64,000 nt of DNA, from IMG/VR virus record IMGVR_UViG_3300032007_000001. One strand, written 5' to 3'. This document shows positions 151 to 40,080 of the stretch, piece after piece (the first letter of the stretch is position 1; every line of letters starts with the position of its first letter). The stretch is from a virus. Its lineage: Duplodnaviria > Caudoviricetes. A program made the translations under genes and the position numbers. The notes under the pieces were generated by a model. The model made no database searches. It saw nothing but the letters and a program-made list of their open reading frames with translations, and was not told the DNA's origin.

Positions 151-849
151 ATGAGTAATGATTTGAAAAATCAATTGATAGATTTACTTTCGTCCAATGA
201 TTATGATATAAATTTTAACACATATGAAACAATAAAAAGTTTAATTATAAATGAAGAAAATCAAAATAATATTTCTAATGAGAACTTAGTTTTCATTAGG
301 GTTTTATCTAAACAAGAATATAATAAATATATTAAAAATGGAACTTGTAATGGGTCTATAACTGCTGAAAATATTAATGTTTGGCATATGCAAAAAGATA
401 AAGATTTTTCAAAAAGTTTATTTGTTCATGATGGCAGAGTACATGAAGAGTATTCGTTTGATAGATATTTTTCCTTAACACAAGACAATAACTTAGATGA
501 AATGAATACATCTGATTTAGATGCTTATAATATTTATATTGAAAGTTCCTGGAGTCGTGATAATAATTGGTATAAAAATTCCGACGCAATGAAAAATGGT
601 GGTTATTATTGGAGAGAAAACGAATATAATTTTCCAGTAACTATTCCCAAAACCACAACTATTAAAAATACTAGAATTGAAACAAAGGCTGCACTTCGTC
701 CATATTCTTGGACCTATGAACAGTTAATTGCAGATGGTTGGGTTTATCGGACTTATAGTCTTTTAAGAGTTGATATTCAAGATATAGCTTGTTATAGACC
801 TGCATTTACTTATAAAGACAATAATAAATCAATTAATATATATTATTGA
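151..849 (+). CDS. Variable-middle paralogue family member 1 (putative C-type-lectin-like fold)
   Basis: Motifs IRVLSKQEYNKYIKNGTCNGSITAENINVW and C-terminal YRPAFTYKDNNKSINIY shared with 7 other ORFs in the window; ATG at 151 after GGTGA. Confidence 0.8.
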   Translation: MSNDLKNQLIDLLSSNDYDINFNTYETIKSLIINEENQNNISNENLVFIRVLSKQEYNKYIKNGTCNGSITAENINVWHMQKDKDFSKSLFVHDGRVHEEYSFDRYFSLTQDNNLDEMNTSDLDAYNIYIESSWSRDNNWYKNSDAMKNGGYYWRENEYNFPVTIPKTTTIKNTRIETKAALRPYSWTYEQLIADGWVYRTYSLLRVDIQDIACYRPAFTYKDNNKSINIYY

Positions 850-14464: not shown

Positions 14465-15181
14465 TTATGAATAAATATTTTTACTTTTATTGTTATCTAT
14501 ATATTGAAAAACTGGTCTAAAACAAAAATTTGCATCACATAAAACATCAAATTTAACTGAATGAGAATTATTAGTATGAAAATAAATTATATTTGACGAT
14601 AATGTAAATTTTTTATTTGCAAAATTTTTTTCAATTAATAAATTACTATCATCAACAAAAAAATATTTACATGTTACACCAGTATATTGACTTTTTGCAT
14701 ATAATGCTACATATGCACTAAAATGTATTACAACGTTACAAACAGATAATTTATTATTATTAATAATTTCTAAATTTTTATTACCAAAATTATATGTTTG
14801 ATAATATGGACTACCTTGTCCATTTCCAGGGAAATATTGTTTATTTAATTTACGTAATTCTTCCGGTATATACGGGTCAACACTATTTGCTGGATAACCA
14901 TACCAATCACTGGAAACAAAAAATGTATTTGAAGAATCACAACATTTATCATAATGCCATGAATTAATATCATATTTTGTTATAGCACCATTTAATGTAT
15001 TATTTCTAATAAATGCGTTATATTCATTTTTAGATAAAGTTCTTATTAAAATATTTAACTTACTAATTTGATTATTGTTTATATTTGAATTGATAATAGA
15101 ATTTTTTATATTTAATAATTCCGGCGGGAATTCTGTATTTAATATTTCATTATATAATTCATCTGAAATTATATGCGACAT
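14465..15181 (-). CDS. Variable-middle paralogue family member 2
   Basis: IRTLSKNEYNAFIRNNTLNGAITKYDINSW ... CFRPVFQYIDNNKSKNIY. Confidence 0.8.
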   Translation of the reverse strand: MSHIISDELYNEILNTEFPPELLNIKNSIINSNINNNQISKLNILIRTLSKNEYNAFIRNNTLNGAITKYDINSWHYDKCCDSSNTFFVSSDWYGYPANSVDPYIPEELRKLNKQYFPGNGQGSPYYQTYNFGNKNLEIINNNKLSVCNVVIHFSAYVALYAKSQYTGVTCKYFFVDDSNLLIEKNFANKKFTLSSNIIYFHTNNSHSVKFDVLCDANFCFRPVFQYIDNNKSKNIYS

Positions 15182-24278: not shown

Positions 24279-26656
24279 AATTTTTCCACATTAAATGTAT
24301 TCGGTTTCGCTTTAATCAATTCCATTTTTTCCAAACGATTCTTAAAGTCAAATTTCTTAATTTCTACTAAGTTATTTTTATCGTCATAATAAATTGGTTT
24401 TTCGCATACATTGACTTTCAATAACTTACTAAATTTCTTATCAAAACAATACCTTAATGCTTTGGATATTCTACCTTTAATTAAAGCATCTCTTGCTCTC
24501 ACAACTTTATAAGAATACGTATCATTATTATTTTCTGCTAGTACCAAAATTAAGTCTTTATCATTATTCTTAAGAGAAGATATTTCGCAATCTACTATGA
24601 AATCTCCATCTTCCAATTTTGGTGCTGGCATAGCTTTTGCGTTCATACCAGTAGAAGTGAATGAATTTGTACTGAATCTTGCTACATATCCTTGTTCTGT
24701 TGCAACCGTTACAATTTCATCTTCAATGTCATCTATAAATTTAGCACATACGATATCTGAGTCAATGTCTTTAATCAACTTTTTGCCAGATTTTAATTTG
24801 CCTATTTCTGTCTTTTTAATATTACCATTTTTCAAAATGGTGAAAAGTGTTTTCTTCAATGTAACTGGAAAAATAGTTACAACGTCTTTTAATTTAGCAT
24901 CTTCTATTTCTTTTACTTTTATAGAAGATACTTCACCATTTTTGAATAATACATATATCTCATCGTTTATCTTTGCTTCAAAATAAATTTTATATAATTC
25001 GGATTTGTCTTTAAGTTTTGAATCATCAAATTCTTTTTTATCGTATACTTTAACGTTTTTATTTGTCAAAACAACAACAGCATCAATAAATGCTTCGGTA
25101 TGTTCTTCTGACATTTCTGCGAATTTAGCTACTATTTTCGTCCTACGTTCGTCGCCAAATTTTTCTTTCAACTGAATCAATTCATTTTTGATATATTCGT
25201 CTCTTGTTTTTTCATCATTTAAGATGTTTTTATGTTCTTCTATGCTTTTCTTTAATTCTTCGATTGATTCAAACACAGCATTGACATTTTTCTTTACAAC
25301 TGAACGGAATTTTCTATCCAATACATAATTGGCTTGAAATTCTGTCAATTGATATTTATTCATAAGCATTTCAATTGCTTTGGCGTCATCTTCGCAATCT
25401 ACTATTTCTTTTGATACTTCTTTTATATTATGAAGTATCTTAGCTACGCCTTCTTGAATCTCTAATTTCTTTCCTTCTTTTTCTATTAGAAATTGCATAC
25501 GGCGTTTGATTACGTTTCTTCTATTTTCAAGATATATATTTACGTAATCAATCAATGTAATCAATTTTGGCGTTTTTTCATGTATGCCACACATGATATA
25601 ACTGCATGGTTTTTGCAAGTCTGTAGAACTATATAATTTATTAACGATAAATGGAATGTTTGCTGTTTTAGCGCACTCTATTACTAACCTTATATTTTCG
25701 CCTTCGCTTTCTTCTCTAACTTCCAAAGCTTTAGGCAAAGACTTGCTAGAAATTAATTCGTATATTTTCTCTAACGTTTTAGAGATATTCATGTTTGGTG
25801 TAGTATCGGTAAATACAATTTGAGGGTTCTCATTTTCTGCATTATGCTCAATTTCATAATTTGCTCTATATATTATTTTACCTTTACCAGTACTATATAA
25901 TTCTTTCAAATTTTCTGAAGATATGCACCCTCCCAAAGGCATATCTGGTCCTTTGATATAAGTCATCAAATTTTCCAAAGTAAAGTCTTTATTGTCTATA
26001 GCATAAATTAAAGCATCGCACACTTCTCTTAAATTATGGCTTGGGCAATTTGTTGTCATACCGACAGCGATACCAGATGCACCATTTACAAGAAAGTTGG
26101 GAAGCAATCCTGGCAATACTATTGGTTCTGTTGTGGTTTCAGAATAATTCGGCTTGAAATCTACGCTACATTCATCTAAAACATCTTCCAATAGATTATA
26201 GGCTATTTTTGCTAAACGGCATTCTGTATATCTATCAGCAGCTGGAGAGTCACCAGAAGCAGAACCATTACATCCATGGAAATCTATTAAAGGATATCTA
26301 AATTCCCAATCTTGTGACATATTCGCAATCGTACCATAACACGAAGAATGTGGGTGATAGTCACCCATGACTTCACCAGATACTTTTGCACATTTTACAT
26401 ACTGTTTATCACTATCATGCTTTCTTTCTGCGCATGAATATAATATCCTTCGCTGTGCTGGTTTCAGCCCATCTAAGACGTCTGGAATCGCACGAGACAG
26501 GATAACTAACATTGAATAAGAAAGCATAGACGTTTTTATTTCTTCGCTTATATCTCCAGTAATGATATTTTCGTTCTCTAGTAATTTATCTACATTCAGT
26601 TTGGCTGTTCTCTTTGCCAAAAAAATCACATCCTTTACTAATTCCATTATAAACAA
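24275..26656 (-). CDS. gyrA: Type IIA topoisomerase subunit A (GyrA/ParC-like)
   Basis: SRAIPDVLDGLKPAQRRILY, YHPH, AADRYTE (catalytic Tyr), NGASGIAVGM.T..PSHNL.E, degenerate pinwheel CTD. Confidence 0.93.
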   Translation of the reverse strand: MFIMELVKDVIFLAKRTAKLNVDKLLENENIITGDISEEIKTSMLSYSMLVILSRAIPDVLDGLKPAQRRILYSCAERKHDSDKQYVKCAKVSGEVMGDYHPHSSCYGTIANMSQDWEFRYPLIDFHGCNGSASGDSPAADRYTECRLAKIAYNLLEDVLDECSVDFKPNYSETTTEPIVLPGLLPNFLVNGASGIAVGMTTNCPSHNLREVCDALIYAIDNKDFTLENLMTYIKGPDMPLGGCISSENLKELYSTGKGKIIYRANYEIEHNAENENPQIVFTDTTPNMNISKTLEKIYELISSKSLPKALEVREESEGENIRLVIECAKTANIPFIVNKLYSSTDLQKPCSYIMCGIHEKTPKLITLIDYVNIYLENRRNVIKRRMQFLIEKEGKKLEIQEGVAKILHNIKEVSKEIVDCEDDAKAIEMLMNKYQLTEFQANYVLDRKFRSVVKKNVNAVFESIEELKKSIEEHKNILNDEKTRDEYIKNELIQLKEKFGDERRTKIVAKFAEMSEEHTEAFIDAVVVLTNKNVKVYDKKEFDDSKLKDKSELYKIYFEAKINDEIYVLFKNGEVSSIKVKEIEDAKLKDVVTIFPVTLKKTLFTILKNGNIKKTEIGKLKSGKKLIKDIDSDIVCAKFIDDIEDEIVTVATEQGYVARFSTNSFTSTGMNAKAMPAPKLEDGDFIVDCEISSLKNNDKDLILVLAENNNDTYSYKVVRARDALIKGRISKALRYCFDKKFSKLLKVNVCEKPIYYDDKNNLVEIKKFDFKNRLEKMELIKAKPNTFNVEKL

Positions 26657-26682: not shown

Positions 26683-27213
26683 CTATAACTTTATCATATG
26701 AGCTGCTGATGTTATATATTCTCCATTCATTTTTGGACTATTCCAAAGTGATATGTTATCTACTAATATTGGTGTTCTTGGCAACTTAAAAGGAATGAAT
26801 TCTTGTGTATCATAAGCGAATGTAATGTGTGGAGTATATCCTTCAAATTTATCTTTAACTTTTTGATACCCAACTTCTTGATATAATTGTTGCAATAAAT
26901 AATGAATTTGATATAACTTAAAAGAGTTATTTACATCCATCCATGCCGCACCCATATCGAAACGATTTAATGTGTTGGCAAAAACATAGAAAGAATGATA
27001 TTCTTCTCCGTATCTTTCTTTGAATAGATTCATTGCTTCTTTTACTAATTCTATGTCGTGTTCTGTGTCACCAAGAAAATCTATAGTAATATGGAAACTG
27101 CTATCGTCAACAAAATTTCCCTTTATTTTTTGTTTAGCTAAAATCTGACAATACTTTAATGAATCAATTGTTTGTTTGTCAGTAATATCAACGGACATAT
27201 ATAACGAACTCAT
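26683..27213 (-). CDS. 2H phosphoesterase (LigT/2'-5' RNA ligase-like)
   Basis: Two HxT motifs: FHITIDFLG and YTPHITF. Confidence 0.88.
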   Translation of the reverse strand: MSSLYMSVDITDKQTIDSLKYCQILAKQKIKGNFVDDSSFHITIDFLGDTEHDIELVKEAMNLFKERYGEEYHSFYVFANTLNRFDMGAAWMDVNNSFKLYQIHYLLQQLYQEVGYQKVKDKFEGYTPHITFAYDTQEFIPFKLPRTPILVDNISLWNSPKMNGEYITSAAHMIKL

Positions 27214-27218
27214 CTATT

Positions 27219-27686
27219 TCACCCTTGAATCTGGTCAACTTTTTTCCAATTCATATTGTACCAGATTTTTTCAAATCCTTTGTAAGTAATTTTTTCTCTA
27301 TACAACGAATATGCGTTTTTCTTTTTTTCTCCTCTTAATCTTCTTGCTCTTATATCTTTTACTTCATTTACAGTCAATTTGCTTCTGCATATATATAAAT
27401 TTTCGAAATCATTGCCGCCAGGAAGAGTATTATAACCAGTGTTCGTTGTATCGTATTTATTAATAAAATATTTTTCTCTCTCCTCGAGATTATCTGTTAT
27501 TTCCAATACGTAAAAAGTGAAGTTTTCTATTCCTTCATTTATTATAGCATCATAAAGTTTATGTTTTATTTTTCTATTAAAAGCACTTTTTATGTGCTGT
27601 TTCCAACGATTCATTACATCTTTTGAACGTCCTATATATTTTTTGTGATTATTGATGTTTTCTATTGCATATATTCCAGATATCAT
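27219..27686 (-). CDS. GIY-YIG homing endonuclease
   Basis: SGIYAIEN..N.KKYIGRS....RW.QH...E.YFI...GYN. Confidence 0.9.
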   Translation of the reverse strand: MISGIYAIENINNHKKYIGRSKDVMNRWKQHIKSAFNRKIKHKLYDAIINEGIENFTFYVLEITDNLEEREKYFINKYDTTNTGYNTLPGGNDFENLYICRSKLTVNEVKDIRARRLRGEKKKNAYSLYREKITYKGFEKIWYNMNWKKVDQIQG

Positions 27687-28102
27687 GTTATAAACAATGC
27701 ATACATTGCATATGAAATATGCAATATTGGTAATATGTTTATAAATACTTTATTATTAGATATACGTTCTTTAAAGAAAACATCAATATAAAAAATACTA
27801 TTATATAACAATAATGTGAATAAATATATATACATAACATTTGTAGACATTATAAAACAACTAACAATAATTAAAATAAAAAATACACATATATTAAAAA
27901 GAAAAACAGAAACTGCTGCAGAAAACGATTCTAAAAATCTTATATATTTCATATGTTCTGCTAATGTTTTATCTTTTTTATTATGTAAAAGTCTATCATC
28001 AAAATTTTTGATTACATATATAATATCATCATTGAATGGAATCTTTTTCCAAATCCCTAATACGTTGTAACAAATCACTATTAGTAGTAGACAATTTATC
28101 AT
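27683..28102 (-). CDS. Hypothetical membrane protein
   Basis: Several hydrophobic segments, coupled overlaps. Confidence 0.6.
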   Translation of the reverse strand: MINCLLLIVICYNVLGIWKKIPFNDDIIYVIKNFDDRLLHNKKDKTLAEHMKYIRFLESFSAAVSVFLFNICVFFILIIVSCFIMSTNVMYIYLFTLLLYNSIFYIDVFFKERISNNKVFINILPILHISYAMYALFIT

Positions 28103-28373
28103 GAATTTCTTCCTTCAATTTATGTAATTTGTATTCTAAAATAATTGTTAAGTAATTGATTACAGATTCTTTTTCTTCTTTCAAAAAATCAAATAAATTA
28201 CAACATTTATTATCATTTGATAAACCACTGGACATTATCAAATATTTCATGCCATATTTTTCAATACTTTGTAGTATTGAAAGGAGTTCTTTCATTACTT
28301 TTGTTTTACTTTTTAATTCGTCAATTGATTTTTCAGATTCATTAATAAAATCATTGACTTCTTGAAAATCCAC
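28029..28373 (-). CDS. Hypothetical protein
   Basis: 114 aa, AAAGGA SD before GTG. Confidence 0.55.
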   Translation of the reverse strand: MDFQEVNDFINESEKSIDELKSKTKVMKELLSILQSIEKYGMKYLIMSSGLSNDNKCCNLFDFLKEEKESVINYLTIILEYKLHKLKEEIHDKLSTTNSDLLQRIRDLEKDSIQ

Positions 28374-28508
28374 TTCCTTTCACTCCTGGTTTATTGTAAA
28401 CCATTTAAGCTCGTTTGTTTTTATTGATATTCGTAGTTTTATCTACCAAAACAAAAATAATTACTTTTAATATAGAAAAACATTCCAATTAAAAAGTTTT
28501 AATAAATA

Positions 28509-29714
28509 TTAGTATTGTACTGAATATTTATATGGCCTATTACATGCCTCTATTGGATCGATGACGTCATACGTCATGTTTCCAACTACTTTTTTTAAGA
28601 TATTATAACTTCCATTTACGTCTGCATTTATCGTTATTCCATTTTCACTTCTAAATAATCCTCTTTTTACTCTTTTTCCTTTATATACATCATGTTTACA
28701 TATATCTTCTTTATCAAGAAAGCTACATTTAGAAGTATAACTTTCCTCATGAGTAATTAAATTAATGCCTAATAATTTACATTTATAAGAAATCATAGTT
28801 AAAAGTTTATAAAATGGAATTTGTGTAAAATTTTGATTATTTACTTTTCCCATATTAATGTCTTGTTTCCAAGATTTATTATATCCTACTACTAAAGTAG
28901 ATATGTCATTAGAAACTAATTGATTCATTAAATAAGAAACACTTTTGTATAAATAATCATTAATTTTATTATTTCTTTTTAATGAAAGTTTTTGCAATCT
29001 TTTACTTGTATATTTATTATTTACTTTTATCAATTTTGAAACTATTTTTGCTTTTTTCTTATTATAATATTGGTTTATTGATTTTAATGGTTTGCCATTA
29101 ATAATTAACGGTTTGTGATTTGTAAAAACTAATGTCATTAAATTATTTAATCCTAAATCTATTGATGCATAATTTTGATTTGTTTTAACCTTTTTTTCTG
29201 TTTCATTATAAAGTACTTCTATTTTTACATATCCATTACATGGTACTATTCTTAATGCTTGAATTTTATTTTTATCTATTTTTGTTTTAATTTTTATATC
29301 TGTTCCACTTAATTTTATATAATTTTGTTCTTTAAGAGATAAAGCTTGTTTTGTATAAGGTACAATTTGTCTTCCTTTTATTGAATCCAAATATTTTGGT
29401 ATAGATACTTTTTTATTGTATTTATTTTGTTTTTTTAATTTGAGCAATTCAAAAAAAGACTTAAAGTTTTTGTCTACTATTTTTTGTATTTGTTGACTAA
29501 CTTTAGAAGGCAAAGCTCTATAATCTTGTTGATTATTTTGAGAAAATTCTTTATTGATTGTACAATAATTTTTATATTTTTGCGTATTAAAAAAATATTG
29601 TCTTATATCATATAATGTAGCGTTATATAAATTTTTAGATAAAAAACATAAATTATCCAATTCTTTATAAAACTTGTGATTTTGCTTAAAAATATGTGTT
29701 TCTACTAATATCAT
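28509..29714 (-). mobile_element. tnpB: Solo TnpB (IS607/IS1341-type RNA-guided nuclease), no tnpA
   Basis: SKNLYN, RuvC motifs SIDLGLNNL / EESYTSKCS / NADVNGSYNI, RVKRGLFRS. Confidence 0.92.
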
Positions 29715-29806
29715 TTTTTCACCTCCTTATTTGAATAATACACTTAAGGTTATGTTTTGTTCATTGTTCTATTTTGTTTATAGAAAATTATGATGGGAGG
29801 TAAATC

Positions 29807-30517
29807 ATGTCATATTTTTTTTCTAAAAACAAATTATCTGATAGCGAATATAACGATTTAATTAATTCAAATTCATTAGAAGAAATAAAAAATTACTTAA
29901 ATAACATAATTAAGAAAGATGAAAATGATAATTCAAATGAAAATTTAATGATTATTAGAATATTGTCTTATGATGAACATAAAAAATATATAACAAGTAG
30001 TACGTTAAGTGGTAGTATTTCAAAAAATGATATTAATGTATGGAATAATTCCGATATGGTTCGATACAGAACATTTTCATATGAAGAATCTTATAATGGT
30101 TGGAATTATAGCGAATATTTAAGATGTTTTAGAAATAACACTAAAATTAGAATAAATGAAATTTTAAAAGAAAATGACAATTACGATTGTTTTTTCCCAA
30201 CTGGAGGTCGTGTTAAAAACAGTCCTTCTTATTTTACACAATATAATAGTTTAATACAAAACAACAACAATAACAATGGCAATGTATATCTTATCCCATC
30301 AGTAATTCAATTTTGGACTTCGCAAGGTGGATATAATAATTCTTACTATAGAAATGACATTTCATATATATATTTAACAAAAAATCAATTAAAATATACA
30401 ATTTCATTTCTAAAAACAAACGGTAATTGGTGGTTTATGGAATTTAATTTTGTACCGGCATTTCGTCCAGTATTTAATTATATAGATAATAATAAAAGTA
30501 ATAATATTTATAGGTGA
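29807..30517 (+). CDS. Variable-middle paralogue family member 3 (array gene 1)
   Basis: IRILSYDEHKKYITSSTLSGSISKNDINVW ... FRPVFNYIDNNKSNNIYR. Confidence 0.8.
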   Translation: MSYFFSKNKLSDSEYNDLINSNSLEEIKNYLNNIIKKDENDNSNENLMIIRILSYDEHKKYITSSTLSGSISKNDINVWNNSDMVRYRTFSYEESYNGWNYSEYLRCFRNNTKIRINEILKENDNYDCFFPTGGRVKNSPSYFTQYNSLIQNNNNNNGNVYLIPSVIQFWTSQGGYNNSYYRNDISYIYLTKNQLKYTISFLKTNGNWWFMEFNFVPAFRPVFNYIDNNKSNNIYR

Positions 30518-30518
30518 T

Positions 30519-31283
30519 ATGATGATTATACAAAAACAATTATACGATTCATTGAAAAATATAAAAAATTTCGAAGAATTTGAAACTTTCAGAAATTCTT
30601 TGGAAATAAGTGATAATGATATTTCAAATGGAAAACTATTTTCTGTAAGAACATTATCAAAAAAAGAATATGATAAATTCATAATGCAAGAGACATTAAA
30701 TGGTTCAATAACAGCAAATGACGCAAATACATGGAATTCTTCATCTAACATTTCATATAAAAGTTTATTTTTAATTGTAACACAAGTAAACTACGGTGGA
30801 GATACATCCAGTTATGGTAAATTCAATCCAAATACGAATTGGGATAGTTTAACTGGAAACGTTTTTAATATAAATTCTTATATAAAGAATAATGATTATA
30901 TTTTGTATAATCAAATTATACCAGGCGGAACCTCTACACAAACTCTTAATAAAATGACAGAACTTTTACAAGATAATAAAACTAATGCATTTTCATTATC
31001 TATTGGTTGTAAAATATTAGAAATAGCTACAGCAACATACAACGATATGTACCGTAATTGGTACGCTTATTGTGGATATAGAGATTCTATAGTACATGGT
31101 ACAACAATTTCTGGGTCAGCAACAGCAACAAAAACGCAAACAAAATTGACTTATTCTTGGAATTCATCATTGCACTTTATAACACCAATAACATATTGTA
31201 CGAGAAACCTAAATATTAATTTATGTTTTCGTCCGATATTCCAATATGTTGATAATAACAAGAGTGCAAATATCTATAGGTGA
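30519..31283 (+). CDS. Variable-middle paralogue family member 4
   Basis: VRTLSKKEYDKFIMQETLNGSITANDANTW ... FRPIFQYVDNNKSANIYR. Confidence 0.8.
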   Translation: MMIIQKQLYDSLKNIKNFEEFETFRNSLEISDNDISNGKLFSVRTLSKKEYDKFIMQETLNGSITANDANTWNSSSNISYKSLFLIVTQVNYGGDTSSYGKFNPNTNWDSLTGNVFNINSYIKNNDYILYNQIIPGGTSTQTLNKMTELLQDNKTNAFSLSIGCKILEIATATYNDMYRNWYAYCGYRDSIVHGTTISGSATATKTQTKLTYSWNSSLHFITPITYCTRNLNINLCFRPIFQYVDNNKSANIYR

Positions 31284-31288
31284 TTTTA

Positions 31289-32065
31289 ATGAGTATAGAA
31301 AATAAAAAAAGAGATTTGTTAAATCTCTTATCTTCTAATAATTACGATATAAACGACGATGAAACGAAACAAGCTTTACAATTAATTATTAATGAAAACG
31401 ATGCAAATGATATAAATGAAAGCTTAATTCTTACTAGAATGTTATCTTACGATGAATATAACAAATATATAAAAAATGATTCTTTGAATGGGTCTATAAC
31501 TGAAAATAACAATAATGTTTGGCACCATTTTATAAACAACAAAGAATTTAATATATATTTTGCTTGGTTAAATGATGGTGGCGGATTTAATGAAAATACA
31601 TGGAAAACCACTATCTTAAATAACTTAAAAACATATAAAAAAATAGATTTTACAAAGTATTTACAGGATAAATGTTACTTAAAAGATTATCAATATAACT
31701 ATGATAAAAATACAATTGATATTACAAGTCTTTATGTAGAACAAACAAACAATGATTCTACAAATACATATAAATTTAATGGACCAATGCAATATATTTT
31801 ATGTACCAATCTTTATTGGAGAGGATATTATAACGGATTTATAAGCCAAATTTCTGGCAACGGTTGCAGTGCGTTAGTATCATATATAGATGTAAGCTCG
31901 TATACAATTAACAAAAGCAACACTAGTGAAACGAAACATATTTATTCTACTATGTATTCAGAATATTGGTCAAGACAAATAGACTTTAGATTTCAGTTTT
32001 TATCAAGTTTTCGTCCAGTATTTAATTATGTTGATAATAGAAAAAGTAATAATATTTATAGGTGA
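31289..32065 (+). CDS. Variable-middle paralogue family member 5
   Basis: TRMLSYDEYNKYIKNDSLNGSITENNNNVW ... FRPVFNYVDNRKSNNIYR. Confidence 0.8.
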   Translation: MSIENKKRDLLNLLSSNNYDINDDETKQALQLIINENDANDINESLILTRMLSYDEYNKYIKNDSLNGSITENNNNVWHHFINNKEFNIYFAWLNDGGGFNENTWKTTILNNLKTYKKIDFTKYLQDKCYLKDYQYNYDKNTIDITSLYVEQTNNDSTNTYKFNGPMQYILCTNLYWRGYYNGFISQISGNGCSALVSYIDVSSYTINKSNTSETKHIYSTMYSEYWSRQIDFRFQFLSSFRPVFNYVDNRKSNNIYR

Positions 32066-32071
32066 TGTAAA

Positions 32072-32649
32072 TTGAGTATAGAAAATGATTTGTTGGACGC
32101 AATATCATCAAAAGGTTACAATATTGAAAATGAAAATGTTAGAAATGCATTATATAAAATCTTAAGTAAAAAAAAAGATAATTACACTGGAGATTTAATA
32201 TCCTGCAGAGTATTATCGCCAAATGAATGGAATAAATATATAATAAAAGATACATTGGACGGTTCCATAACAGCAAATAATAATAGTGTGTGGAAAAAAA
32301 TAACACCAACAAATACAAACAATTCATTTGGTGGTGGTGGCTGTCCAACTTATTATTCTTATTTTTATTTAGAGTTATCTCAAAATAATAATTCTGGTAA
32401 TTCAACATGTTTGCATGAACCAACTAATTGTTCAAATTCGATTTATGTTATGGGACGTTTGAATAATCAAGATAATTTTACAATTGGAAATACAAATATC
32501 AGTAAAAAAGAAGTATATATCTTTTGAGAGATTCATATGTTCGTTCAAACAATTCAACCGGTATAAGAACTTATGTATATGGATATATAAATTTTAGACC
32601 AGTTTTTCAATATAAAGACAATAATAAATCTCGAACGATTTTCAATTAA
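32072..32649 (+). pseudogene. Variable-middle paralogue family member 6, frameshifted
   Basis: Frame-0 ORF stops at 32527; the family C-terminus FRPVFQYKDNNKSRTIFN* is in the -1 frame ending 32649; one extra A in the A6 run at 32504-32509 restores it. Confidence 0.78.
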
Positions 32650-32663
32650 TTTGGTGAAAATAT

Positions 32664-33392
32664 ATGAGTGAATTTAAGCAAAAATTTATAGATTTTTTAT
32701 CAGAAAATAATTTTAATATAAACGAAATTAAAAACGAATTGTTATCATTATTTAATGAAAACATAGAAGATAGTCCAACAAGAAATTTATTTTCTTGTAG
32801 AATTTTATCTATAGATGAATACGATAAATATATATTAAATAGTACATTAAATGGGTCCATCAATAAATATGATAGCAACGTTTGGAATGATTTCTTAAAA
32901 ACAAATGTAAATGGTTTTGTTTGTTGTCATAGGCCAATTGGTGAATCAATTAGTACATGGAATTCTGGGATAAAACAAAATAAATTTGTTTGTTATTCAA
33001 ATACAAATATAAAAAAATTACCCGAATATACAAATTTTAATAATTATGAAGTTAGAGGTTGTTCGCCAAACGTAAAAGATAATGTATATGTATATACAAA
33101 TTTATCACAGGATGACTCAAATAATAAATGCAAATATGCAACGCAACGTAAAACATATGAATCATTCCAATCTGATTGGGTTGATTTTGAAAAATGGTCT
33201 TATATGATTATAGAAATATCATCAAAAGAATTGATAGATAAACAACAAACTAAAAAAACAACGGTTGTCGTTAATGCACCAATAGTTTGTAGTAATGGTG
33301 CAACTCATACATTAACATGTAATAATTATTTATGTTTTAGACCGGTTTTTAATTATGTTGATAATAACAAGAGCGAAAATATAATTTTTTGA
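32664..33392 (+). CDS. Variable-middle paralogue family member 7
   Basis: CRILSIDEYDKYILNSTLNGSINKYDSNVW ... FRPVFNYVDNNKSENIIF. Confidence 0.8.
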   Translation: MSEFKQKFIDFLSENNFNINEIKNELLSLFNENIEDSPTRNLFSCRILSIDEYDKYILNSTLNGSINKYDSNVWNDFLKTNVNGFVCCHRPIGESISTWNSGIKQNKFVCYSNTNIKKLPEYTNFNNYEVRGCSPNVKDNVYVYTNLSQDDSNNKCKYATQRKTYESFQSDWVDFEKWSYMIIEISSKELIDKQQTKKTTVVVNAPIVCSNGATHTLTCNNYLCFRPVFNYVDNNKSENIIF

Positions 33393-33404
33393 TTTGGTGA
33401 TATC

Positions 33405-34094
33405 ATGTCTCACATTATTTCAGATTTATTATATAATCAACTTATAAATTCCAATACATTGGAAGAACTTCTAACATCTAGAGATTTAATAAGAAATTCT
33501 CAAAATACACAAGGAGATGTTTCTAATGAGAACTTTGTTCTCATTAGAATTTTATCAAAAAACGAATATGATAAATATATTAAAAATGGAAATTTGAATG
33601 GGTCTGTAACAGAAAACAATATGAATACTTGGAATTATTCTCGATATAATGGTTATTTAATGTTATTTGGAGTTTATGGTGGTTACAATATAGACACATA
33701 CGATACATTTCAAAGCAGAGATAAAAACTTAAAAGCACCAAAAAATAGAGTATCTTGTTATCATAAAGGTGCTTGGCACGATGCTGCAAATTGGATAATG
33801 CAAACATATTTTATATTTGAAATTTTATCGAACAACAATGAAAATAAAAATACAGGCATATTCAATAATGATGTATTATTGGAAATTTATATAAATACAA
33901 GTGAAACAATATATAAGAATTATTCTGTTCCTAAAAATGTTACATTTAATAAAAGCGAAATAAATCATTTGGATTCTTTTTCAGCCTCACCAGTTAGTTA
34001 TGTAACTGGAACAATTAAATTAAATTGTTATTCATCATTTAGACCAGTTTTTAATTATAAGGATAATAACAAAAATAATTATATTTTCAATTAA
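33405..34094 (+). CDS. Variable-middle paralogue family member 8
   Basis: IRILSKNEYDKYIKNGNLNGSVTENNMNTW ... FRPVFNYKDNNKNNYIFN. Confidence 0.8.
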   Translation: MSHIISDLLYNQLINSNTLEELLTSRDLIRNSQNTQGDVSNENFVLIRILSKNEYDKYIKNGNLNGSVTENNMNTWNYSRYNGYLMLFGVYGGYNIDTYDTFQSRDKNLKAPKNRVSCYHKGAWHDAANWIMQTYFIFEILSNNNENKNTGIFNNDVLLEIYINTSETIYKNYSVPKNVTFNKSEINHLDSFSASPVSYVTGTIKLNCYSSFRPVFNYKDNNKNNYIFN

Positions 34095-34121
34095 ATGGGT
34101 AAAAATATATCCAATAAATAA

Positions 34122-34144
34122 AAAGAGAGCATTAAGCTCTCTTT
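34122..34144. terminator. Repeated hairpin terminator, copy 1
   Basis: AAAGAGAGC-ATTAA-GCTCTCTTT. Confidence 0.75.
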
Positions 34145-34146
34145 AT

Positions 34147-34422
34147 TTATTCCATTTCATATCTCATTTGTTGTTGTTCTTTTGCTTTTTCTATGATTGT
34201 TATTTTTATGATTTGTTTAAGTTCTTCAATTGTTGTATTGCTATCTACTTTTTCTTTTACAGCATCACATAATGCTTCAAACACTCTATCATCATTCAAA
34301 CAATCATGTACATAAAAATAAATGTAATTTTCTTCACAATTGTTTATTATGAAATTTAGTACTTCATCGCAATTGTATGTTATATCTTTTTGCGTTATCG
34401 CTAATCTTCTTAATCTTTTCAT
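34147..34422 (-). CDS. Hypothetical protein (MKRLRRLA leader)
   Basis: GGAGTG SD. Confidence 0.65.
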   Translation of the reverse strand: MKRLRRLAITQKDITYNCDEVLNFIINNCEENYIYFYVHDCLNDDRVFEALCDAVKEKVDSNTTIEELKQIIKITIIEKAKEQQQMRYEME

Positions 34423-34482
34423 TATATTCACTCCAATTACTTATTCTAAATCAAAATATATATATCATTAAGAAAAAAAATA

Positions 34483-34502
34483 AGAGAGCATTAAGCTCTC
34501 TC
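34483..34502. terminator. Repeated hairpin terminator, copy 2
   Basis: AGAGAGCATTAAGCTCTCTC, overlapping the stop of the upstream minus-strand gene. Confidence 0.7.
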
Positions 34503-35048
34503 AATTTTTTCTTCTTTTAACATTTTCAATATAAATTTATCAGGTGGAGTTCCATTTTCTACATTTATTAAATCCAATGACAATCCATTTATCATTACTT
34601 TTGTTTCATCGTATAGATTTGCAAATTTATCTTCAGATATTTCAGCTATTGGTTTCCCAATATATGTAATTTCTATATCATTTTCTGTAAGCTTTTCAGT
34701 CTGTTTATCTTTCGCTTTTTCTTTTATTTTCCACTCAAATTTTTTAGCTAATGCTATTGTAAGTACTTCTCCAGAATGTTTTATATTCTTAAATTGATAA
34801 ACTTCTACTACATAAAATTCTATGTTTTCTCCTTGTCCATAACAACCATAATTAGCATAACTTGGAGGAGTAGAAGATGCTTCATCAATTACATGTACAT
34901 ATTCTTTCGTTATCAATTTCTTTACTATTTCTTTGTTTTCTCTTAATGCATCTGTTACTTCTTGATGAGTGATAGCTTCGCCAGTTTGTATTGATGGTTC
35001 TCCAAATACCATTTTATACATTTCTTCTTTTGATATTAAACGTTTCAC
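34491..35048 (-). CDS. Hypothetical protein (MKRLISK leader)
   Basis: GAGGTGA SD then GTG; early promoter upstream. Confidence 0.7.
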   Translation of the reverse strand: MKRLISKEEMYKMVFGEPSIQTGEAITHQEVTDALRENKEIVKKLITKEYVHVIDEASSTPPSYANYGCYGQGENIEFYVVEVYQFKNIKHSGEVLTIALAKKFEWKIKEKAKDKQTEKLTENDIEITYIGKPIAEISEDKFANLYDETKVMINGLSLDLINVENGTPPDKFILKMLKEEKIERA

Positions 35049-35068
35049 ATCTATCACCTCTTTTTTGT

Positions 35069-35097
35069 ATTATAACATATTTGATAAACAATGTAAA
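35069..35097 (-). promoter_or_regulatory. SigA-type promoter
   Basis: TTTACA-17nt-TATAAT on the minus strand. Confidence 0.7.
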
Positions 35098-35100
35098 TAA

Positions 35101-35128
35101 AAAGAGAGCATTAAGCTCTCTCTTTTTT
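35101..35128. terminator. Repeated hairpin terminator, copy 3
   Basis: AAAGAGAGCATTAAGCTCTCTCTTTTTT. Confidence 0.75.
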
Positions 35129-36443
35129 ATTCTTCTACTTTTTTATATTTGTATTTTGCTCTATTATTTTCATATTGTTCAATGATACCACGCGTATATG
35201 CTAAATTAGCCAATTCAGATTCAGTTTTAATAAATTCATTATATTTATTACCAAGTACATTAAACGGTGTTTCTACCCAATATTTTGCATCTTTCAAAGA
35301 CACATTATAATATGTATCTATTATTTTTGTATGGTCTTTAAAATCATTTCCATGACCATCAAGTATCAATACTACATTGTTAGGATTCCCATCTGTGAAG
35401 ACTTGATCTTCTCTCATAAGTTTAATGTATCTTGTTTTGCATATATCGAAATGAATTGCTGTGGCAATTTGCCCAACAACAAAGAAATTTCTTTCTACTG
35501 CATCAAATTGCCGTTTTGCATCTGTATAAAGGAATGCAGCGCCACATTTTGTATTGCCATTGAATAAAACACCAAAATCATTGTCATACTTAACAAATCC
35601 CAATGACAATTCTTCTATTTTTCTAATAGCTCTTTCTAACCGTTTGGCTGTTTTACTATGTGGATGAAGCCAATTTGTTACTCTATCTTCAATACCACGC
35701 ATTATTTTGTAATTATATGCTCTATATTCTACCATTGCTTCCCCGCCAACACTATATTCAGGCACATACATGGCGTATTCCATAGCTTTCTCATCTGCCT
35801 GTTGTTCTGTCTCAAATCCCATTTGACGACTATTAAAAGCATTGATAAGACTTGAACCAGCAGACAATCCAAGCAAAGCCCATACATTTCCAGCTGGAAT
35901 CATCGATATGATAAGCCTCGTATCCATCTGCCTATCATACTGCCTTAACATATCTTCGTTCTCCCAATGGCCAATTTCATGGCCAATAACAGCCGCCATT
36001 GCTGACATTTGATATATGTTTGATTTTTTCCAAGGCGTTTGTTCATTTTTATTATAAGAAAATGCACCACTTGTCATAGTAGCTAAATGGTCAAACATAC
36101 CTTCATATACGTATATTTGCCCACCACCATAACTTATAGCATTGGCAGAATCATTTTTTGCCATAAGTATGGGTTCTAGTCCGCGCTTTTTCCCTGGCGT
36201 GCCGTACATCCAGAGTTTGTCAGAGTTGAAGAGCATAATCCGCTTCTGGATGTGTTCGAGCACCCAATTGTGCTCGACAGGGTATTCTTTTGCAAAATCT
36301 TGGGCAGCTTGTGTGCCTATCTCTTTTTCTTGTTTTGACGATAACCAATGAGCTTCAGAAACAAATGGTACTGTAAGAGTTGCTGCAGTAGCAATTACCA
36401 CGGTTAAATTTTTAATTGCATTTTTGATTTTCAATGATATCAT
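35127..36443 (-). CDS. Secreted M48-family zinc metallopeptidase
   Basis: Signal peptide (…VSEA|HW), EKEIG, NAISYGGGQIYV..G, AAVIGHEIGH (HExxH), EQQADE, HP....RL. Confidence 0.85.
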   Translation of the reverse strand: MISLKIKNAIKNLTVVIATAATLTVPFVSEAHWLSSKQEKEIGTQAAQDFAKEYPVEHNWVLEHIQKRIMLFNSDKLWMYGTPGKKRGLEPILMAKNDSANAISYGGGQIYVYEGMFDHLATMTSGAFSYNKNEQTPWKKSNIYQMSAMAAVIGHEIGHWENEDMLRQYDRQMDTRLIISMIPAGNVWALLGLSAGSSLINAFNSRQMGFETEQQADEKAMEYAMYVPEYSVGGEAMVEYRAYNYKIMRGIEDRVTNWLHPHSKTAKRLERAIRKIEELSLGFVKYDNDFGVLFNGNTKCGAAFLYTDAKRQFDAVERNFFVVGQIATAIHFDICKTRYIKLMREDQVFTDGNPNNVVLILDGHGNDFKDHTKIIDTYYNVSLKDAKYWVETPFNVLGNKYNEFIKTESELANLAYTRGIIEQYENNRAKYKYKKVEE

Positions 36444-36460
36444 TTCCTTTCATAGATAAA

Positions 36461-36772
36461 TTATAATTGTTTTTCGCATGCATGATTAGGTTTAACAAAA
36501 TAGAATTTACCATCTTTAAATACTTCTTTTACAACTTCTTTGTAAGATACAATTTGGTCACTATCATAAAAGGATGACCTATTATCTTTGTCTTCCCAAT
36601 AATAAAATTGTACAGAACCAAATCCAATTACTTTTTGAACAAGTTCTTCGGCTTCTTTTTCAGTTTTTGCTCCAACTCTATATCTTCCAGCTGTATTTCT
36701 TTGTCTACTTGGTCTTCTATAATTATCAACTAAGACTATAGCTTGTCTAATTTCTTTCATTAACTTTTTCAT
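36461..36772 (-). CDS. Hypothetical protein
   Basis: About 103 aa. Confidence 0.55.
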   Translation of the reverse strand: MKKLMKEIRQAIVLVDNYRRPSRQRNTAGRYRVGAKTEKEAEELVQKVIGFGSVQFYYWEDKDNRSSFYDSDQIVSYKEVVKEVFKDGKFYFVKPNHACEKQL

Positions 36773-36817
36773 CTCCAAAAAATAAAAGAGGAATAATTTC
36801 CTCTTTTATTCTATACA

Positions 36818-38749
36818 TTATAAACTGTCTATGTTAGCACTAAAAGCATTTTCTTCTATAAATTCTTTTCTCAATGAAGCGTCTTTTCCCATAAGTATTT
36901 CGAACATTTTTGCAGCTTCTTCGGCATCTTCTATAGTTATTCTTTTTAACGTTCTTGTTTTTGGGTCTAGAGTTGTTTCTTTGATTTCTGTATGGTTCAT
37001 CTCGCCCAAACCCTTAAAACGGTATAAAATATCATTGTCGTTTGGATGCAGTTTTCTATATTTTTCCAATTCATTATCATCTGCTATATAAACAGATGTT
37101 GTATCTTTTTTTACTATTCTATATAATGGTGGCAAAGCTGCATATACATGTCCTTTCCTAACCAATTCTGGCATATAATAGTAAAATAATGTCAATAACA
37201 ATGAACGTATATGAGAACCATCAACATCAGAGTCTGTTAATATTATTATTTTATCATATCTTATATTATTGACATCGAATTTATCTCCAATTCCTCCACC
37301 AATAGCTGCTACTATACCTTTAATAATTTCAGAATTTAATATCTTCCCAATATCAGCTTTTGATACATTTAATATTTTACCACGAAGTGGCAATACGGCT
37401 TGGAATTCTTTATATCTTCCTTGTTTCGTTGTACCAGCAGCTGAATCACCTTCTACTATAAGTAATTCACTTTGTCCTTCGTGGTTAGCACAATCTGCCA
37501 ATTTCCCAGGAAGAGCCATGGAAGTAAGTTGTTTTGCTTTTCTTGAATTTAGTCTCGCTTGTCTTGCTGCAAGTTCTGCTGTTTTTGTTTTGCTTGCTCT
37601 TTCAGCTATTAAGTCAAGTATCTTGGATTGTTTACGGTTTTTGGCTATTGCTTCCAATCCTTTTTTAAGCACACTTTCAACCGCATCTTTCGCAATAGCA
37701 TTGCCAAGTTTTGTTTTTGTTTGTCCTTCAAATTCAGCATTGGTCATTTTGATAGAGATAGTAGCATATAGGCCATCTTCAAAATAACGCATTTCAATAG
37801 GTTCTTTGATTAACTTCTTATTAATAGCATATTCATTCAAGTAATCTTTTAATGCATTCCTAAATCCTTGGACATGCATACCACCTTCATAGGTATTGAT
37901 ACTATTGACGAAAGATTTGATTTTATTGTTTGGTTCAACCTCATTATCATGAATAAAAGAAATTTCTACTAAAATCTTACTCCCGTCTATATTGTCATAC
38001 TTATCGTTGATAAGAATTGGTTCATCATATAAACGTTTTTTCTTTTCAATTAATTGTAACGTATATCCATTAATGCCGTCTTTATAATAAAAAGATTTAT
38101 TAACTTTTCTTTTTTCGTTAATATAATTGATAGTCAATCCAGAATTTAGTGAAGCTAATTCTACTAAACGACCTTCTAATCTATTTGAAGGTTCAAGAGA
38201 AGCTTTATAGATTTGTTTATCTGGGTGATATTTAATGGTTGTACCAGTTTCATCAGTATCTCCAATAACTTCTACTTCAGAAGTTGGAACGCCATAAGCA
38301 AATTCTTGTTTATAAATATGTCCATCTCTTTTTACAATGGCACAAAAATAATCACTGCAAGCATTGGTGCAGCACGAGCCAACGCCGTGAAGGCCCGCGC
38401 TTACCGAATATCCGCTATTTTTATCATGACTATATTTACCACCAGAATGAAGTGTTGTAAGAATACCTGTAAGAGTATCAATAGGCTTACCATCTTTATC
38501 TTTGAAAATTTCTGATGGACCAACGGGAATTCCTCTACCTCTATCAATTACTTCTACTGTAAAATCCTTATATATATGAACATCTATAACATTACCATAA
38601 CCGGCCATAAATTCGTCAATTGAATTATCCAATATTTCATAGACAAGTTGTTCTGTGGAATTTAATTGTCCTAAATACATGGCTGGCATTTGACGTATTG
38701 CATCAACATTTTGAAGAGATTTTATTTGATTAACACCATATTCGCTCAA
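36818..38749 (-). CDS. gyrB: Type IIA topoisomerase subunit B (GyrB/ParE-like)
   Basis: PAMYLG, EILDNSIDE, DRGRGIP, LHSGGK, GLHGVG, VEGDSA, PLRGKILN, DSDVDGSHI, RFKGLGEM. Confidence 0.95.
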   Translation of the reverse strand: MSEYGVNQIKSLQNVDAIRQMPAMYLGQLNSTEQLVYEILDNSIDEFMAGYGNVIDVHIYKDFTVEVIDRGRGIPVGPSEIFKDKDGKPIDTLTGILTTLHSGGKYSHDKNSGYSVSAGLHGVGSCCTNACSDYFCAIVKRDGHIYKQEFAYGVPTSEVEVIGDTDETGTTIKYHPDKQIYKASLEPSNRLEGRLVELASLNSGLTINYINEKRKVNKSFYYKDGINGYTLQLIEKKKRLYDEPILINDKYDNIDGSKILVEISFIHDNEVEPNNKIKSFVNSINTYEGGMHVQGFRNALKDYLNEYAINKKLIKEPIEMRYFEDGLYATISIKMTNAEFEGQTKTKLGNAIAKDAVESVLKKGLEAIAKNRKQSKILDLIAERASKTKTAELAARQARLNSRKAKQLTSMALPGKLADCANHEGQSELLIVEGDSAAGTTKQGRYKEFQAVLPLRGKILNVSKADIGKILNSEIIKGIVAAIGGGIGDKFDVNNIRYDKIIILTDSDVDGSHIRSLLLTLFYYYMPELVRKGHVYAALPPLYRIVKKDTTSVYIADDNELEKYRKLHPNDNDILYRFKGLGEMNHTEIKETTLDPKTRTLKRITIEDAEEAAKMFEILMGKDASLRKEFIEENAFSANIDSL

Positions 38750-38855: not shown

Positions 38856-39974
38856 TTAATTATGCACAATTATGAAATTTGACTGATTTAGTGCAACGCA
38901 AAGGTTGTTTGCCTTGCATAATTTTATATAATACATTGCTTTCTTTTCTGTATTTTTCATCAATTGAGTAGATACTACTTTGTGATTATAATTTTTTACA
39001 TATTCTAAGAATTTATTAAAATCTTTGAAATACTTTTCTATTTTTGAAAATGGTTGAGCATTGCTATGCAAAAATCTTTTCTTTTCTTCATAATTTTCTT
39101 CAGTGATTTGTTTTCCTTCATCTAATAAAAGTCTTCCTATTTTTGCTATAGCATTTCTTTTTGATGTTTTTCTGTCTTCAATAGAACGTGTTAACATTTT
39201 ATAGTCGCTATTTGACAATTTATTTTCATATTCATAACTAAGATTCAAAAACTCATCAAAAGATTCAAAGTATTTATTGACAAGATTCATATTAATTGGG
39301 AATCTAAGAAATCCATTAATTCTATTTGACTCTAACAAATCTTGGTCTAAAATCAAATATTTTCTTATTAAACATGCAGCAGAACGTAATACATATTCTC
39401 GTTTTTGGTCATTTAAGATATTCTTATCTCTATCTGCATTGTAGCGTATCGTTTTTTCTCTATCATGATAAGCTTTATGTTTATTAGAATCTAACCAAAT
39501 TAAATTAGTTGGATTATTATTTTTATGATTTTCGTCAATGTGATGTACATCAAATCCGCCTATATCAATTTTGGGTTCCATATAATTCATAACCATATGA
39601 TGAGTAAATTTCCATTCATTATTATTAATGTCATAAAACATTTCTCTATCGTAGTTATAGTCTTCTTGATTAATTTGAAAATTCATTGGAAATATACTAT
39701 CAGCTTTTTTTAATAAATTTGCAGAAACGTATCTATTGTCTTTTGTATAAAAAAGATGAAGTGGGTCTGTTTCTATATAATTGCCTGTGTCTAATGTAAT
39801 AATGAAAGTATCATAAATATAAGATTTATTAATTGATGATACTTTATCTGGAAAAACGTTGTTATTTTCATCAATTGAATAGACAAAATAATCTTCTTTT
39901 TTGTTATTGAACATTTCTTCTATAGATTTTATTGTTCCATCTAAAAGTTTTATTAAAGTATTTCCACTCAGCAT
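38856..39974 (-). mobile_element. Free-standing intein-like gene (Hint + HNH endonuclease) without exteins
   Basis: Starts MLSGNTLIKLLDG (block A, Cys replaced by the start Met); TDPLHLFYT (block B); VHHIDENHKNNNPTNL (HNH); NHKVVS...YYIKL...IIVHN-stop. Confidence 0.85.
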
Positions 39975-40080
39975 ATCTCTCACCCTCTCAGAAGCTGCTT
40001 GTGCACATTATATATACGTTGTTATAGATTTATTTTAAGCATAAAAAAAGAACTGGATAATCCAGTCCTTTTTATTTATT

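Follow-up and report, generated by a model that had tools for sequence, protein, structure and literature searches.

How does a large phage come to hold many versions of one small protein, and what could they do for it? The question is raised by a six-gene tandem array at positions 29807-34094 of a 64,000-nucleotide stretch of DNA (hereafter the window) from the Caudoviricetes record IMGVR_UViG_3300032007_000001 of IMG/VR. The window is G000:C1:129438-193437 of a source record of 504,279 bp, with 29.7% G+C and 100% complete by CheckV in IMG/VR; coordinates marked G000 or given as genome positions refer to this whole record. An original prediction, made from the letters of the window, had described the array genes and two dispersed copies as a repertoire of paralogues with a constant frame and a variable core, and had proposed that they are binding proteins with a C-type-lectin fold, varied by duplication and exchange rather than by a diversity-generating retroelement (DGR). 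We find that the eight window genes are part of a family that has grown to about 27 copies in a megaphage lineage, that recombination among them is well supported within the single genome contig, and that the family descends from one half of a two-part tail-fibre unit. We consider below what these observations suggest about function.

A constant frame around a variable middle

Each family protein is built from the same succession of parts. A predicted pair of helices of about 45 residues (the N-module), which comes in several interchangeable types, is followed by the first part of a constant frame, a strand and helix with the signature I-R-x-L-S-x-x-E-Y-x-K-Y-I ... L-N-G-S ... W (block 1); the second part, a terminal strand and tail reading F-R-P-V-F-x-Y-x-D-N-N-K-S, closes the protein. 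Between the two frame parts lie 120-180 residues, predicted to be beta-rich, that differ in every copy. Alignments of the 21 intact copies of the genome bear out both motifs that had first been noticed in the window: S51, E54, R213, P214, F216, D220 and K223 are invariant in all 21, and R48, L50, G66, S67, F212, Y218 and N221 are conserved in at least 90% of them, while the frame residues are kept across the 224 cluster representatives recovered by the database search described below. Conservation by segment confirms the division into constant frame and variable core, with mean pairwise identities of 29% in the N-terminal part, 50% in block 1, 15% in the middle (122-180 residues long) and 64% in the C-terminal block.

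The middles had been described as impossible to align by eye, and their 15% mean identity agrees with this: in middle-versus-middle BLASTP searches only 3 of the 210 pairs reach E<1e-3, two of them being recent duplicates with 60% identity. Weak homology is nevertheless detectable with hidden Markov models (HMMs) of the middle. When 116 family members were split four ways and each part was held out in turn, the real middles averaged 10 bits against an HMM of the other middles and shuffled ones -3 bits, and 88% of the held-out real middles outscore all five of their shuffles. Because the held-out middles outscore the shuffles, and because an E..(Q/N)(N/D)N anchor in the middle is common even to distant relatives, the middle is a single, very divergent domain of variable size, its versions being weakly homologous to one another. 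The expected richness in aromatic and polar residues holds for Tyr (2.0x relative to the long open reading frames (ORFs) of the genome), Trp (1.7x) and Thr, Asn and Ser (about 1.4x), but not for Gly, which is not enriched (1.07x). Ratios of non-synonymous to synonymous substitution (dN/dS) in close pairs are 0.24-0.72 for the middle and 0.10-0.32 for the frame; selection on the middle is relaxed yet still purifying. No nuclease or transposase motif was found in the eight window proteins by Pfam, and an ADP-ribosyltransferase-like (R-S-E) reading of the conserved polar residues was rejected, as their spacing is too close and no family match backs it.

All eight genes first recognised in the window are real, but the family is far larger: a profile built from the window copies finds about 27 loci when run against the 504,279-bp record. 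These copies, 21 of them intact, 2 shortened in frame and 3-4 broken, are spread over seven loci. Genome clusters lie at 28.6-45.6 kb (8 family loci), 60-63 kb (3), 108.8-110.1 kb (2) and 281.3-285 kb (5), and the window contributes the array (6) and two dispersed single genes. ORF calls place the window copies where they had been reported, with seven intact at 229-261 residues and one frameshifted. The dispersed ones are copy 1 (151..849, + strand, 232 residues, profile E 6e-67) and copy 2 (14465..15181, - strand, 238 residues). The array, tightly packed on the + strand and opposite to its neighbouring genes, opens with copy 3 (29807..30517, 236 residues, profile E 1.5e-81) and continues with copy 4 (30519..31283, 254 residues), copy 5 (31280..32065, 261 residues, with a GTG start and a 4-nucleotide overlap with copy 4), the broken and shortened copy 6 (32072..32649), copy 7 (32664..33392, 242 residues) and copy 8 (33405..34094, 229 residues), whose protein was modelled. 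The reading frame of copy 6 stops at 32527 and its C-terminal block, at 32593-32649, lies in a different frame, giving two separate profile matches (G000 161533-161904 and 161937-162083). A terminator-like hairpin at 34122..34144, readable on both strands, closes both the array and the convergent gene at 34147-34431.

Only two public sequencing runs contain the full sequence of this uncultured phage, both from one bovine gut sample, and no RNA run is listed among them. An independent Logan contig from that sample reproduces window positions 27000-37000 with 0 differences. Among the defective copies, the one at G000:C1:282133-282795 (- strand) has two in-frame TGA codons and no frameshift, and a relative on the contig L012 (gene 366-974) has one TGA where the source genome has GGA. 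Recoding of TGA, which in-frame TGA in this genome copy and in P0097 had suggested, was rejected; as the genome has no suppressor tRNA that we could find, the TGA-bearing copies are probably broken. ARAGORN reports a tmRNA gene (tag DNDYVAIAA) and a tRNA-like gene whose anticodon is, oddly, four bases long (cgta), at G000:C1:6105-6468 and 98370-98444.

Recombination, duplication and a hairpin at the crossover

The expectation that this diversity arose without a DGR is supported. No RVT_1 match, and hence no reverse transcriptase, was found in the 504-kb record, with positive controls, and short contigs from three other studies contain pieces of the array cores with 0-1 differences; with no reverse transcriptase and near-identical core pieces elsewhere, nothing points to ongoing hypermutation.

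What the copies do show is exchange between their parts, with breakpoints at the conserved blocks, as had been proposed. Pairwise identities of N-modules and middles are uncorrelated (rho -0.03): the two copies whose N-modules are most alike (65%) are unrelated in their middles (14%), and where middles are 60% identical the N-modules are no more alike than background (37%). Triplet tests identify three copies as chimeras, with Fisher p values of 2e-5, 6e-8 and 3e-8, each being the minimum over 120 alignment columns, and with the best breakpoints at columns 78-91, inside block 1. One of them is copy 2, whose N-module resembles that of the genome copy at 109423 and whose remainder resembles the copy at 60775 (60% middle identity; p=3e-8).

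Contigs from other phages extend this picture. L017 shares with the genome copy at 28685-29398 only nucleotides 140-680 of the gene, from block 1 to F-R-P, at 90% nucleotide identity, the N-module, the tail and both flanks being at 40-55%; it looks like a whole-core cassette in a different setting. The match of L012 to the 30689 copy and the flank upstream of that copy, at 93%, breaks off after codon 64. In L013 an N-module of the 284-kb cluster is followed by the flank that lies downstream of the 63-kb cluster, and in L019 the N-part of the 108816 copy runs into the body of the neighbouring copy. Gene content varies too: at a place where the source genome has no family gene, L010 has an additional one, set exactly between a stop codon and the ribosome-binding site that follows. 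The same related rumen phage contig carries, at L010 1530-3510, a serine-recombinase (Resolvase) gene and a 462-residue gene that together look IS607-like, the source genome having about 450 bp at that place. Carriage of the same cores in the same order by related phages would have argued against exchange; in the contig L009, the cores have no orthologue in the source genome, the best middle identity being 25-32%. New variants would then come from homologous recombination within the two conserved blocks, which would exchange N-modules and whole core cassettes, with genes gained and lost by unequal crossing-over and ordinary divergence under relaxed purifying selection adding further variants.

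In about half of the family copies there is a stem-loop where the N-module meets block 1. The mean folding energy in a 44-nucleotide window is -5.9 kcal/mol at this junction, against -2 to -4 at all other offsets, and perfect inverted repeats there have arms of 15, 13, 10, 8 and 8 bp, each strongest in its own gene. When codons were resampled with the protein held fixed, 6 of 24 copies were more stable than expected (z down to -8), with a combined p of 3e-4. In copy 8 the inverted repeat (33521..33549, + strand, z -8) has perfect 13-bp arms, the 3' arm consisting of the conserved L-I-R codons; in copy 1 the hairpin (273..301, + strand) has a minimum free energy of -11.6 kcal/mol (p=0.003). Further junction stem-loops lie at window positions 32769-32813 and 32177-32221 and in the G000 copies at 108816, 283527, 30689 and 41796. 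Across the family the 3' arm falls on the conserved I-R-I codons, and the mosaic breakpoints lie at or just after the hairpin. It may serve as a recombination signal or as an RNA element, or it may be a by-product.

Tail-fibre relatives and the question of the lectin fold

Conventional searches give the family no name. The eight window copies have no Pfam match (E up to 1), sequence and profile searches found no match in PDB, and a tblastn search with one window copy found none in 50,697 GenBank phage records. An exhaustive profile search of 1.84 billion cluster representatives returned 224 matches, and the family is known only from metagenomic phages. The near matches have the architecture of the window copies; in the far ones (alignment A3) a distinct N-domain of about 100 residues precedes the same frame with a shorter middle.

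The far relatives lead to phrog_30895, which all 27 of those tested match and whose function entry in PHROGs is unknown; reciprocally, a search with the family profile recovers proteins of the phrog_30895 type (E 1e-16 to 1e-8), and the phrog_30895 HMM matches 6 of the 8 window copies, in block 1 only, at E 2.6e-8 to 2.6e-3. These phage proteins are of similar size and share I-R-x-L-S-x-x-E ... N-V-W-H ... F-R-P-x-(L/F)-E-Y-x-D-N-x-K-S with the megaphage copies. They differ in being single-copy tail-module genes of smaller phages rather than a multi-copy family, in having a middle of about 55-80 residues rather than 120-180, and in possessing the N-domain of about 100 residues. One of them, gp047 of Brevibacillus phage Sundance ('putative cell adhesion domain protein'), lies in the tail module among minor tail, PAAR, laminin-G, Ig and carbohydrate-binding genes. 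Another, P0120, adjoins a CBM_5_12 protein, a tape-measure gene and P0153, a 905-residue protein made of three tandem units of N-domain plus compact frame. A further search iteration reached prophage proteins of Moorella, Paenibacillus and Bacillus (Bacillota), in which an F5/8 type C discoidin domain is inserted between the N-domain and the compact frame.

The compact form also occurs in the megaphage itself. An HMM of 16 compact frames (A5) matches every megaphage copy at E 1e-5 to 1e-11, and its strongest matches are two tandem units of N-domain plus compact frame in a fibre-like protein of 609 residues (genome 63102-64928; L014), whose gene directly follows the 60-63 kb family cluster. Inside that cluster lies P0191 (genome 61538-62170), which consists of the phrog_30895 N-domain alone and a Thr-rich tail. 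An HMM of the N-domain (G-D-Y-I ... F-Y-F-I-K-V-D-K-G-L-L-V-A-D-R) finds, in the source genome, only P0191 and the 609-residue protein, and none of the family copies. P0191 and the 609-residue protein have the look of the family's ancestral form, and possibly of its scaffold. The 60-63 kb locus is syntenic with L009, a contig from another sample, where the flanking genes are 64-72% identical in protein; the L009 locus has at least 7 family copies, compared with 3 in the source genome, it too holds a P0191-type N-domain-only protein inside the array, and RCC1-like, CBM96 and DUF285 tail-fibre-type genes follow. At least one array, that at 60-63 kb, is therefore still in a fibre locus. Profile homology, the tail contexts of the relatives, the tandem-unit protein and the syntenic fibre locus together argue that the family descends from the second half of a two-part tail-fibre unit, N-domain plus compact frame.

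Does the frame adopt a C-type-lectin fold? An AlphaFold model of copy 8 built on 131 sequences reaches a mean local confidence (pLDDT) of 77.3 and a predicted template-modelling score (pTM) of 0.67, a first model from 21 sequences having been discarded as unusable (pLDDT 58). It has two N-terminal helices, a strand at 46-49, a helix at 52-60, a beta-rich region at 84-217 and a C-terminal tail of low confidence; the middle, at pLDDT 60-87, has a generic beta-sandwich look (Z <=4.3). In the comparison of predicted structures with lectin folds that the original prediction had suggested, a Foldseek search of PDB with the copy 8 model, whose middle has this modest confidence, gave no match at E<=1e-3 and hence no lectin fold. 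Searches with this model by Foldseek in BFVD, by VIA-align (wide and second look) and by shape in the ESM Atlas gave no clear match and listed no C-type-lectin chain, and a search of the ESM Atlas by features with copy 8 was uninformative. Nor did the Lcl_C (DUF1566) and Fib_succ_major HMMs match anything in the genome at E up to 10.

The lead comes from the compact relatives. P0185, a relative and not a window protein, has an ESM Atlas model with pTM 0.89, and its structural neighbours are clusters of surface proteins at template-modelling (TM) scores of 0.66-0.70 over about 165 residues; one of these, to which it aligns at TM 0.67 over 164 residues, has 74% DUF6273 members. DUF6273 has been described as a C-type-lectin-like target of DGRs (PMC10743442; PMC11792537). 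The DUF6273 HMM of Pfam (PF19789) matches neither the eight copies (E up to 1) nor the relatives (E up to 0.01; up to 10), and in a scan of the whole genome it finds only P0192 and one other ORF. Comparison with hhalign of alignments A2, A3, A4 and A5 with a 31-sequence DUF6273 alignment gave P 0.07-0.39, which is not significant, in a register that sets R-x-L-S-x-x-E on W-L-P-x-E and F-R-P on C-F-R. P0192 (4974..6854, - strand) is by domain scan a tail-fibre protein of 626 residues with Collar, Gly-rich and C-terminal DUF6273 regions, and its order of motifs (G-D-Y ... L-W-L-P-S-x-x-E ... C-F-R) parallels, by eye, that of the family relatives. The C-type-lectin fold first proposed for the copies is thus reached through a chain from the family to its compact relatives and from these to the P0185 model; it finds no echo in HMM or PDB matches or in the copy 8 model. 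We predict a DUF6273-like fold for the unit of the compact relatives, and, because the profile-profile comparison is not significant, regard a lectin frame in the window proteins as only plausible.

Possible binding heads, alternatives and known systems

Because the copies descend from a tail-fibre domain, the likeliest of the readings considered is that they are a stock of different binding heads, carried on the virion or directed to surfaces, and we see the chances of this being right as evenly balanced. The frame would display the enlarged variable part as a ligand-binding surface, and the N-module or the highly conserved C-terminal tail would dock the protein to a common partner. With a constant frame and variable, intact cores, the phage would then have at its disposal some 21 heads of different specificity, whose targets would probably be glycans or other cell-surface structures of rumen bacteria. 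A ligand-binding head fits the tail-module relatives, the discoidin-bearing cousins, the fibre locus, the DUF6273 lead and the Tyr/Trp-rich variable part on a constant frame. The data show the family and its size, the pattern of conservation, the homology to tail-fibre units, the mosaicism, the lack of a reverse transcriptase and the turnover from phage to phage; the binding function, the association with the virion and the lectin-like fold of the megaphage copies are inferred. A more elaborate form of the idea, in which a DGR-independent germ-line library of about 20 lectin-derived heads is recombined as cassettes at the two blocks, with the hairpin as crossover signal, and, being without the N-half of the ancestral unit, docks in trans on P0191 and the 609-residue protein, so that one fibre displays interchangeable specificities, we hold to be clearly unlikely.

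Several observations weigh against binding heads of this kind. Most copies lie outside structural modules: the window array sits between gyrA (24275-26656) and gyrB (36818-38749), and the copies at 28-46 kb sit among small genes without assigned function. Signal peptides and recognisable virion-anchoring domains are absent from all copies, the N-domain of the tail-module relatives is missing from the megaphage proteins, and the profile comparison with DUF6273 falls short of significance. Several of the between-phage mosaics, moreover, are on short metagenomic contigs of low coverage (four of the contigs are short), where chimeras are possible at repeats; the mosaics within the genome hold regardless, being independent of such contigs. 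As to location, fibre-type genes (Collar/DUF6273 and DUF285) are themselves scattered among replication genes in the source genome, which makes the position of a gene weak evidence on its function. P0192 lies amid nucleotide-metabolism genes, with a second Collar-domain ORF at 3643-4347, and a leucine-rich, BspA-like DUF285 protein (21112-22287, - strand), of which there are several more copies at G000 331-353 kb, is related to the C-terminal part of the tail-fibre-type protein that follows the L009 array.

The position of most copies among small fast-evolving or DNA-metabolism genes would suit proteins that work inside the cell, a tail-fibre domain re-used without its N-domain such that each copy traps a different host or defence protein, as an anti-defence or host-takeover 'sponge'. 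The loss of the tail-type N-domain, the lack of a signal peptide, the birth and death of copies (3-4 of them broken) and the different repertoires of related phages would all be in keeping with this. Yet all recognisable relatives are tail-module or surface-protein domains, one array lies inside a fibre locus, and fibre-like genes are also scattered among replication genes, so that location says little. A strict sigma-A-type promoter, moreover, is found within 400 nucleotides upstream of 0 of 26 copies, a weak point against this reading, the genome having 81 such sites against about 26 by chance. We consider an intracellular role somewhat unlikely. A generic promoter scan around the array stayed at chance level, and ATTTTGTTTAT, a candidate shared upstream word, was dropped because it has only 8 occurrences in the genome.

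It is quite improbable that the copies are accessory or assembly partners of the fibre rather than ligand binders, whether chaperone-like or as adaptors that complete N-domain-only proteins in trans, although P0191 lies inside the 60-63 kb array both here and in the L009 phage, the 609-residue protein comes directly after it, and the C-terminal tail is at once the most conserved part and the one of low confidence in the monomer model. About 21 intact and very different cores far exceed what a chaperone would need, and the relatives join frame and N-domain in one polypeptide, with the discoidin domain at the frame position pointing to the frame as the binding side. Very improbable, finally, is a mostly selfish or neutral repeat, which the conserved blocks and the hairpin would spread and shuffle while the phage itself gains little. 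Insertion or deletion of single genes in an intergenic spacer, the pseudogenes, the hairpin at the crossover point and a TnpB gene adjoining the array could all be so understood, but cores and frames are under purifying selection (dN/dS 0.1-0.7), most copies (21 of about 27) are intact, the 224 cluster representatives keep the frame residues and the proteins have no nuclease or transposase motif.

The TnpB gene, of IS605 OrfB type with OrfB_IS605 and Cas12f1-like TNB domains (28509-29714, - strand), is directly upstream of the array and divergent from it, and an M48 peptidase gene (35127-36443) is another immediate neighbour. Elsewhere in the window we note a 2H/LigT phosphoesterase (26683-27213, - strand) with a weak match to the Acb1 family of inhibitors of cyclic-oligonucleotide-based anti-phage signalling (anti-CBASS), an intein with an HNH endonuclease next to gyrB (38856-39983, - strand), a full-length gene for a major facilitator superfamily (MFS) transporter between DHH/DHHA1 and RecJ-like genes (16416-17579, - strand), and a homologue of Thg1-like tRNA-His guanylyltransferase (2054-2944, - strand).

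Three ways in which phages vary the proteins that bind their hosts are known: DGR mutagenesis, the swapping of tail-fibre tips and the carriage of several tailspikes. Scaffolds that stay fixed around a variable binding region, and large phages with many genes for host recognition, are already known in kind. Mtd of Bordetella phage BPP-1 and TvpA of Treponema are DGR variable proteins with the C-type-lectin fold. The likeness of the family to them is one of concept, a constant fold with a variable ligand-binding surface near the C-terminus: no match in sequence or fold was found, and the diversity here consists of many germ-line genes that recombine, not of products of a reverse transcriptase. 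Large phages such as the Klebsiella jumbo phage PhiK64-1 carry many receptor-binding proteins or depolymerases that widen their host range. One genome with many alternative host-recognition proteins is the point of resemblance; those of PhiK64-1, however, are large tailspike enzymes of known folds, proven in the virion, whereas the copies are small proteins of one unnamed family, whose place in the virion is putative. The DUF6273 (PF19789) targets of gut-phage DGRs, including the tentaclins (PMC10743442; PMC11792537), resemble the family in that a variable binding region precedes the last strand of a fixed scaffold; the present genome has no DGR, and the variable part of the family is a large insert, different from paralogue to paralogue, rather than a short adenine-mutated repeat. 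The expansion of a zinc-ribbon family to about 35 copies in the phage G group (PMC7824862) likewise gives dozens of divergent small-domain paralogues in a giant phage with Pol III-type replication, but the domain is another one, and the fixed frame with variable core, the cassette exchange and the tail-fibre origin belong to the family described here. The same study found no lectin-fold 'FGS' domains in jumbo phages (PMC7824862).

Against this background the family looks like a fourth arrangement, in which about 20 very different versions of one small scaffold each have a gene of their own and are reshuffled at fixed crossover blocks. What appears new is the stored diversity of about 20 genes, the DGR-free exchange of cassettes at two blocks, the splitting of an ancestral unit and the hairpin at the crossover, the last being a concrete, testable lead on how recombination between paralogues may be guided. 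For a family without a Pfam entry, the link to tail-fibre units and DUF6273 is a first handle for annotation. If the copies are binding heads, they would make up a natural set of binders on one frame, and would help to explain how rumen megaphages handle many or changing hosts.

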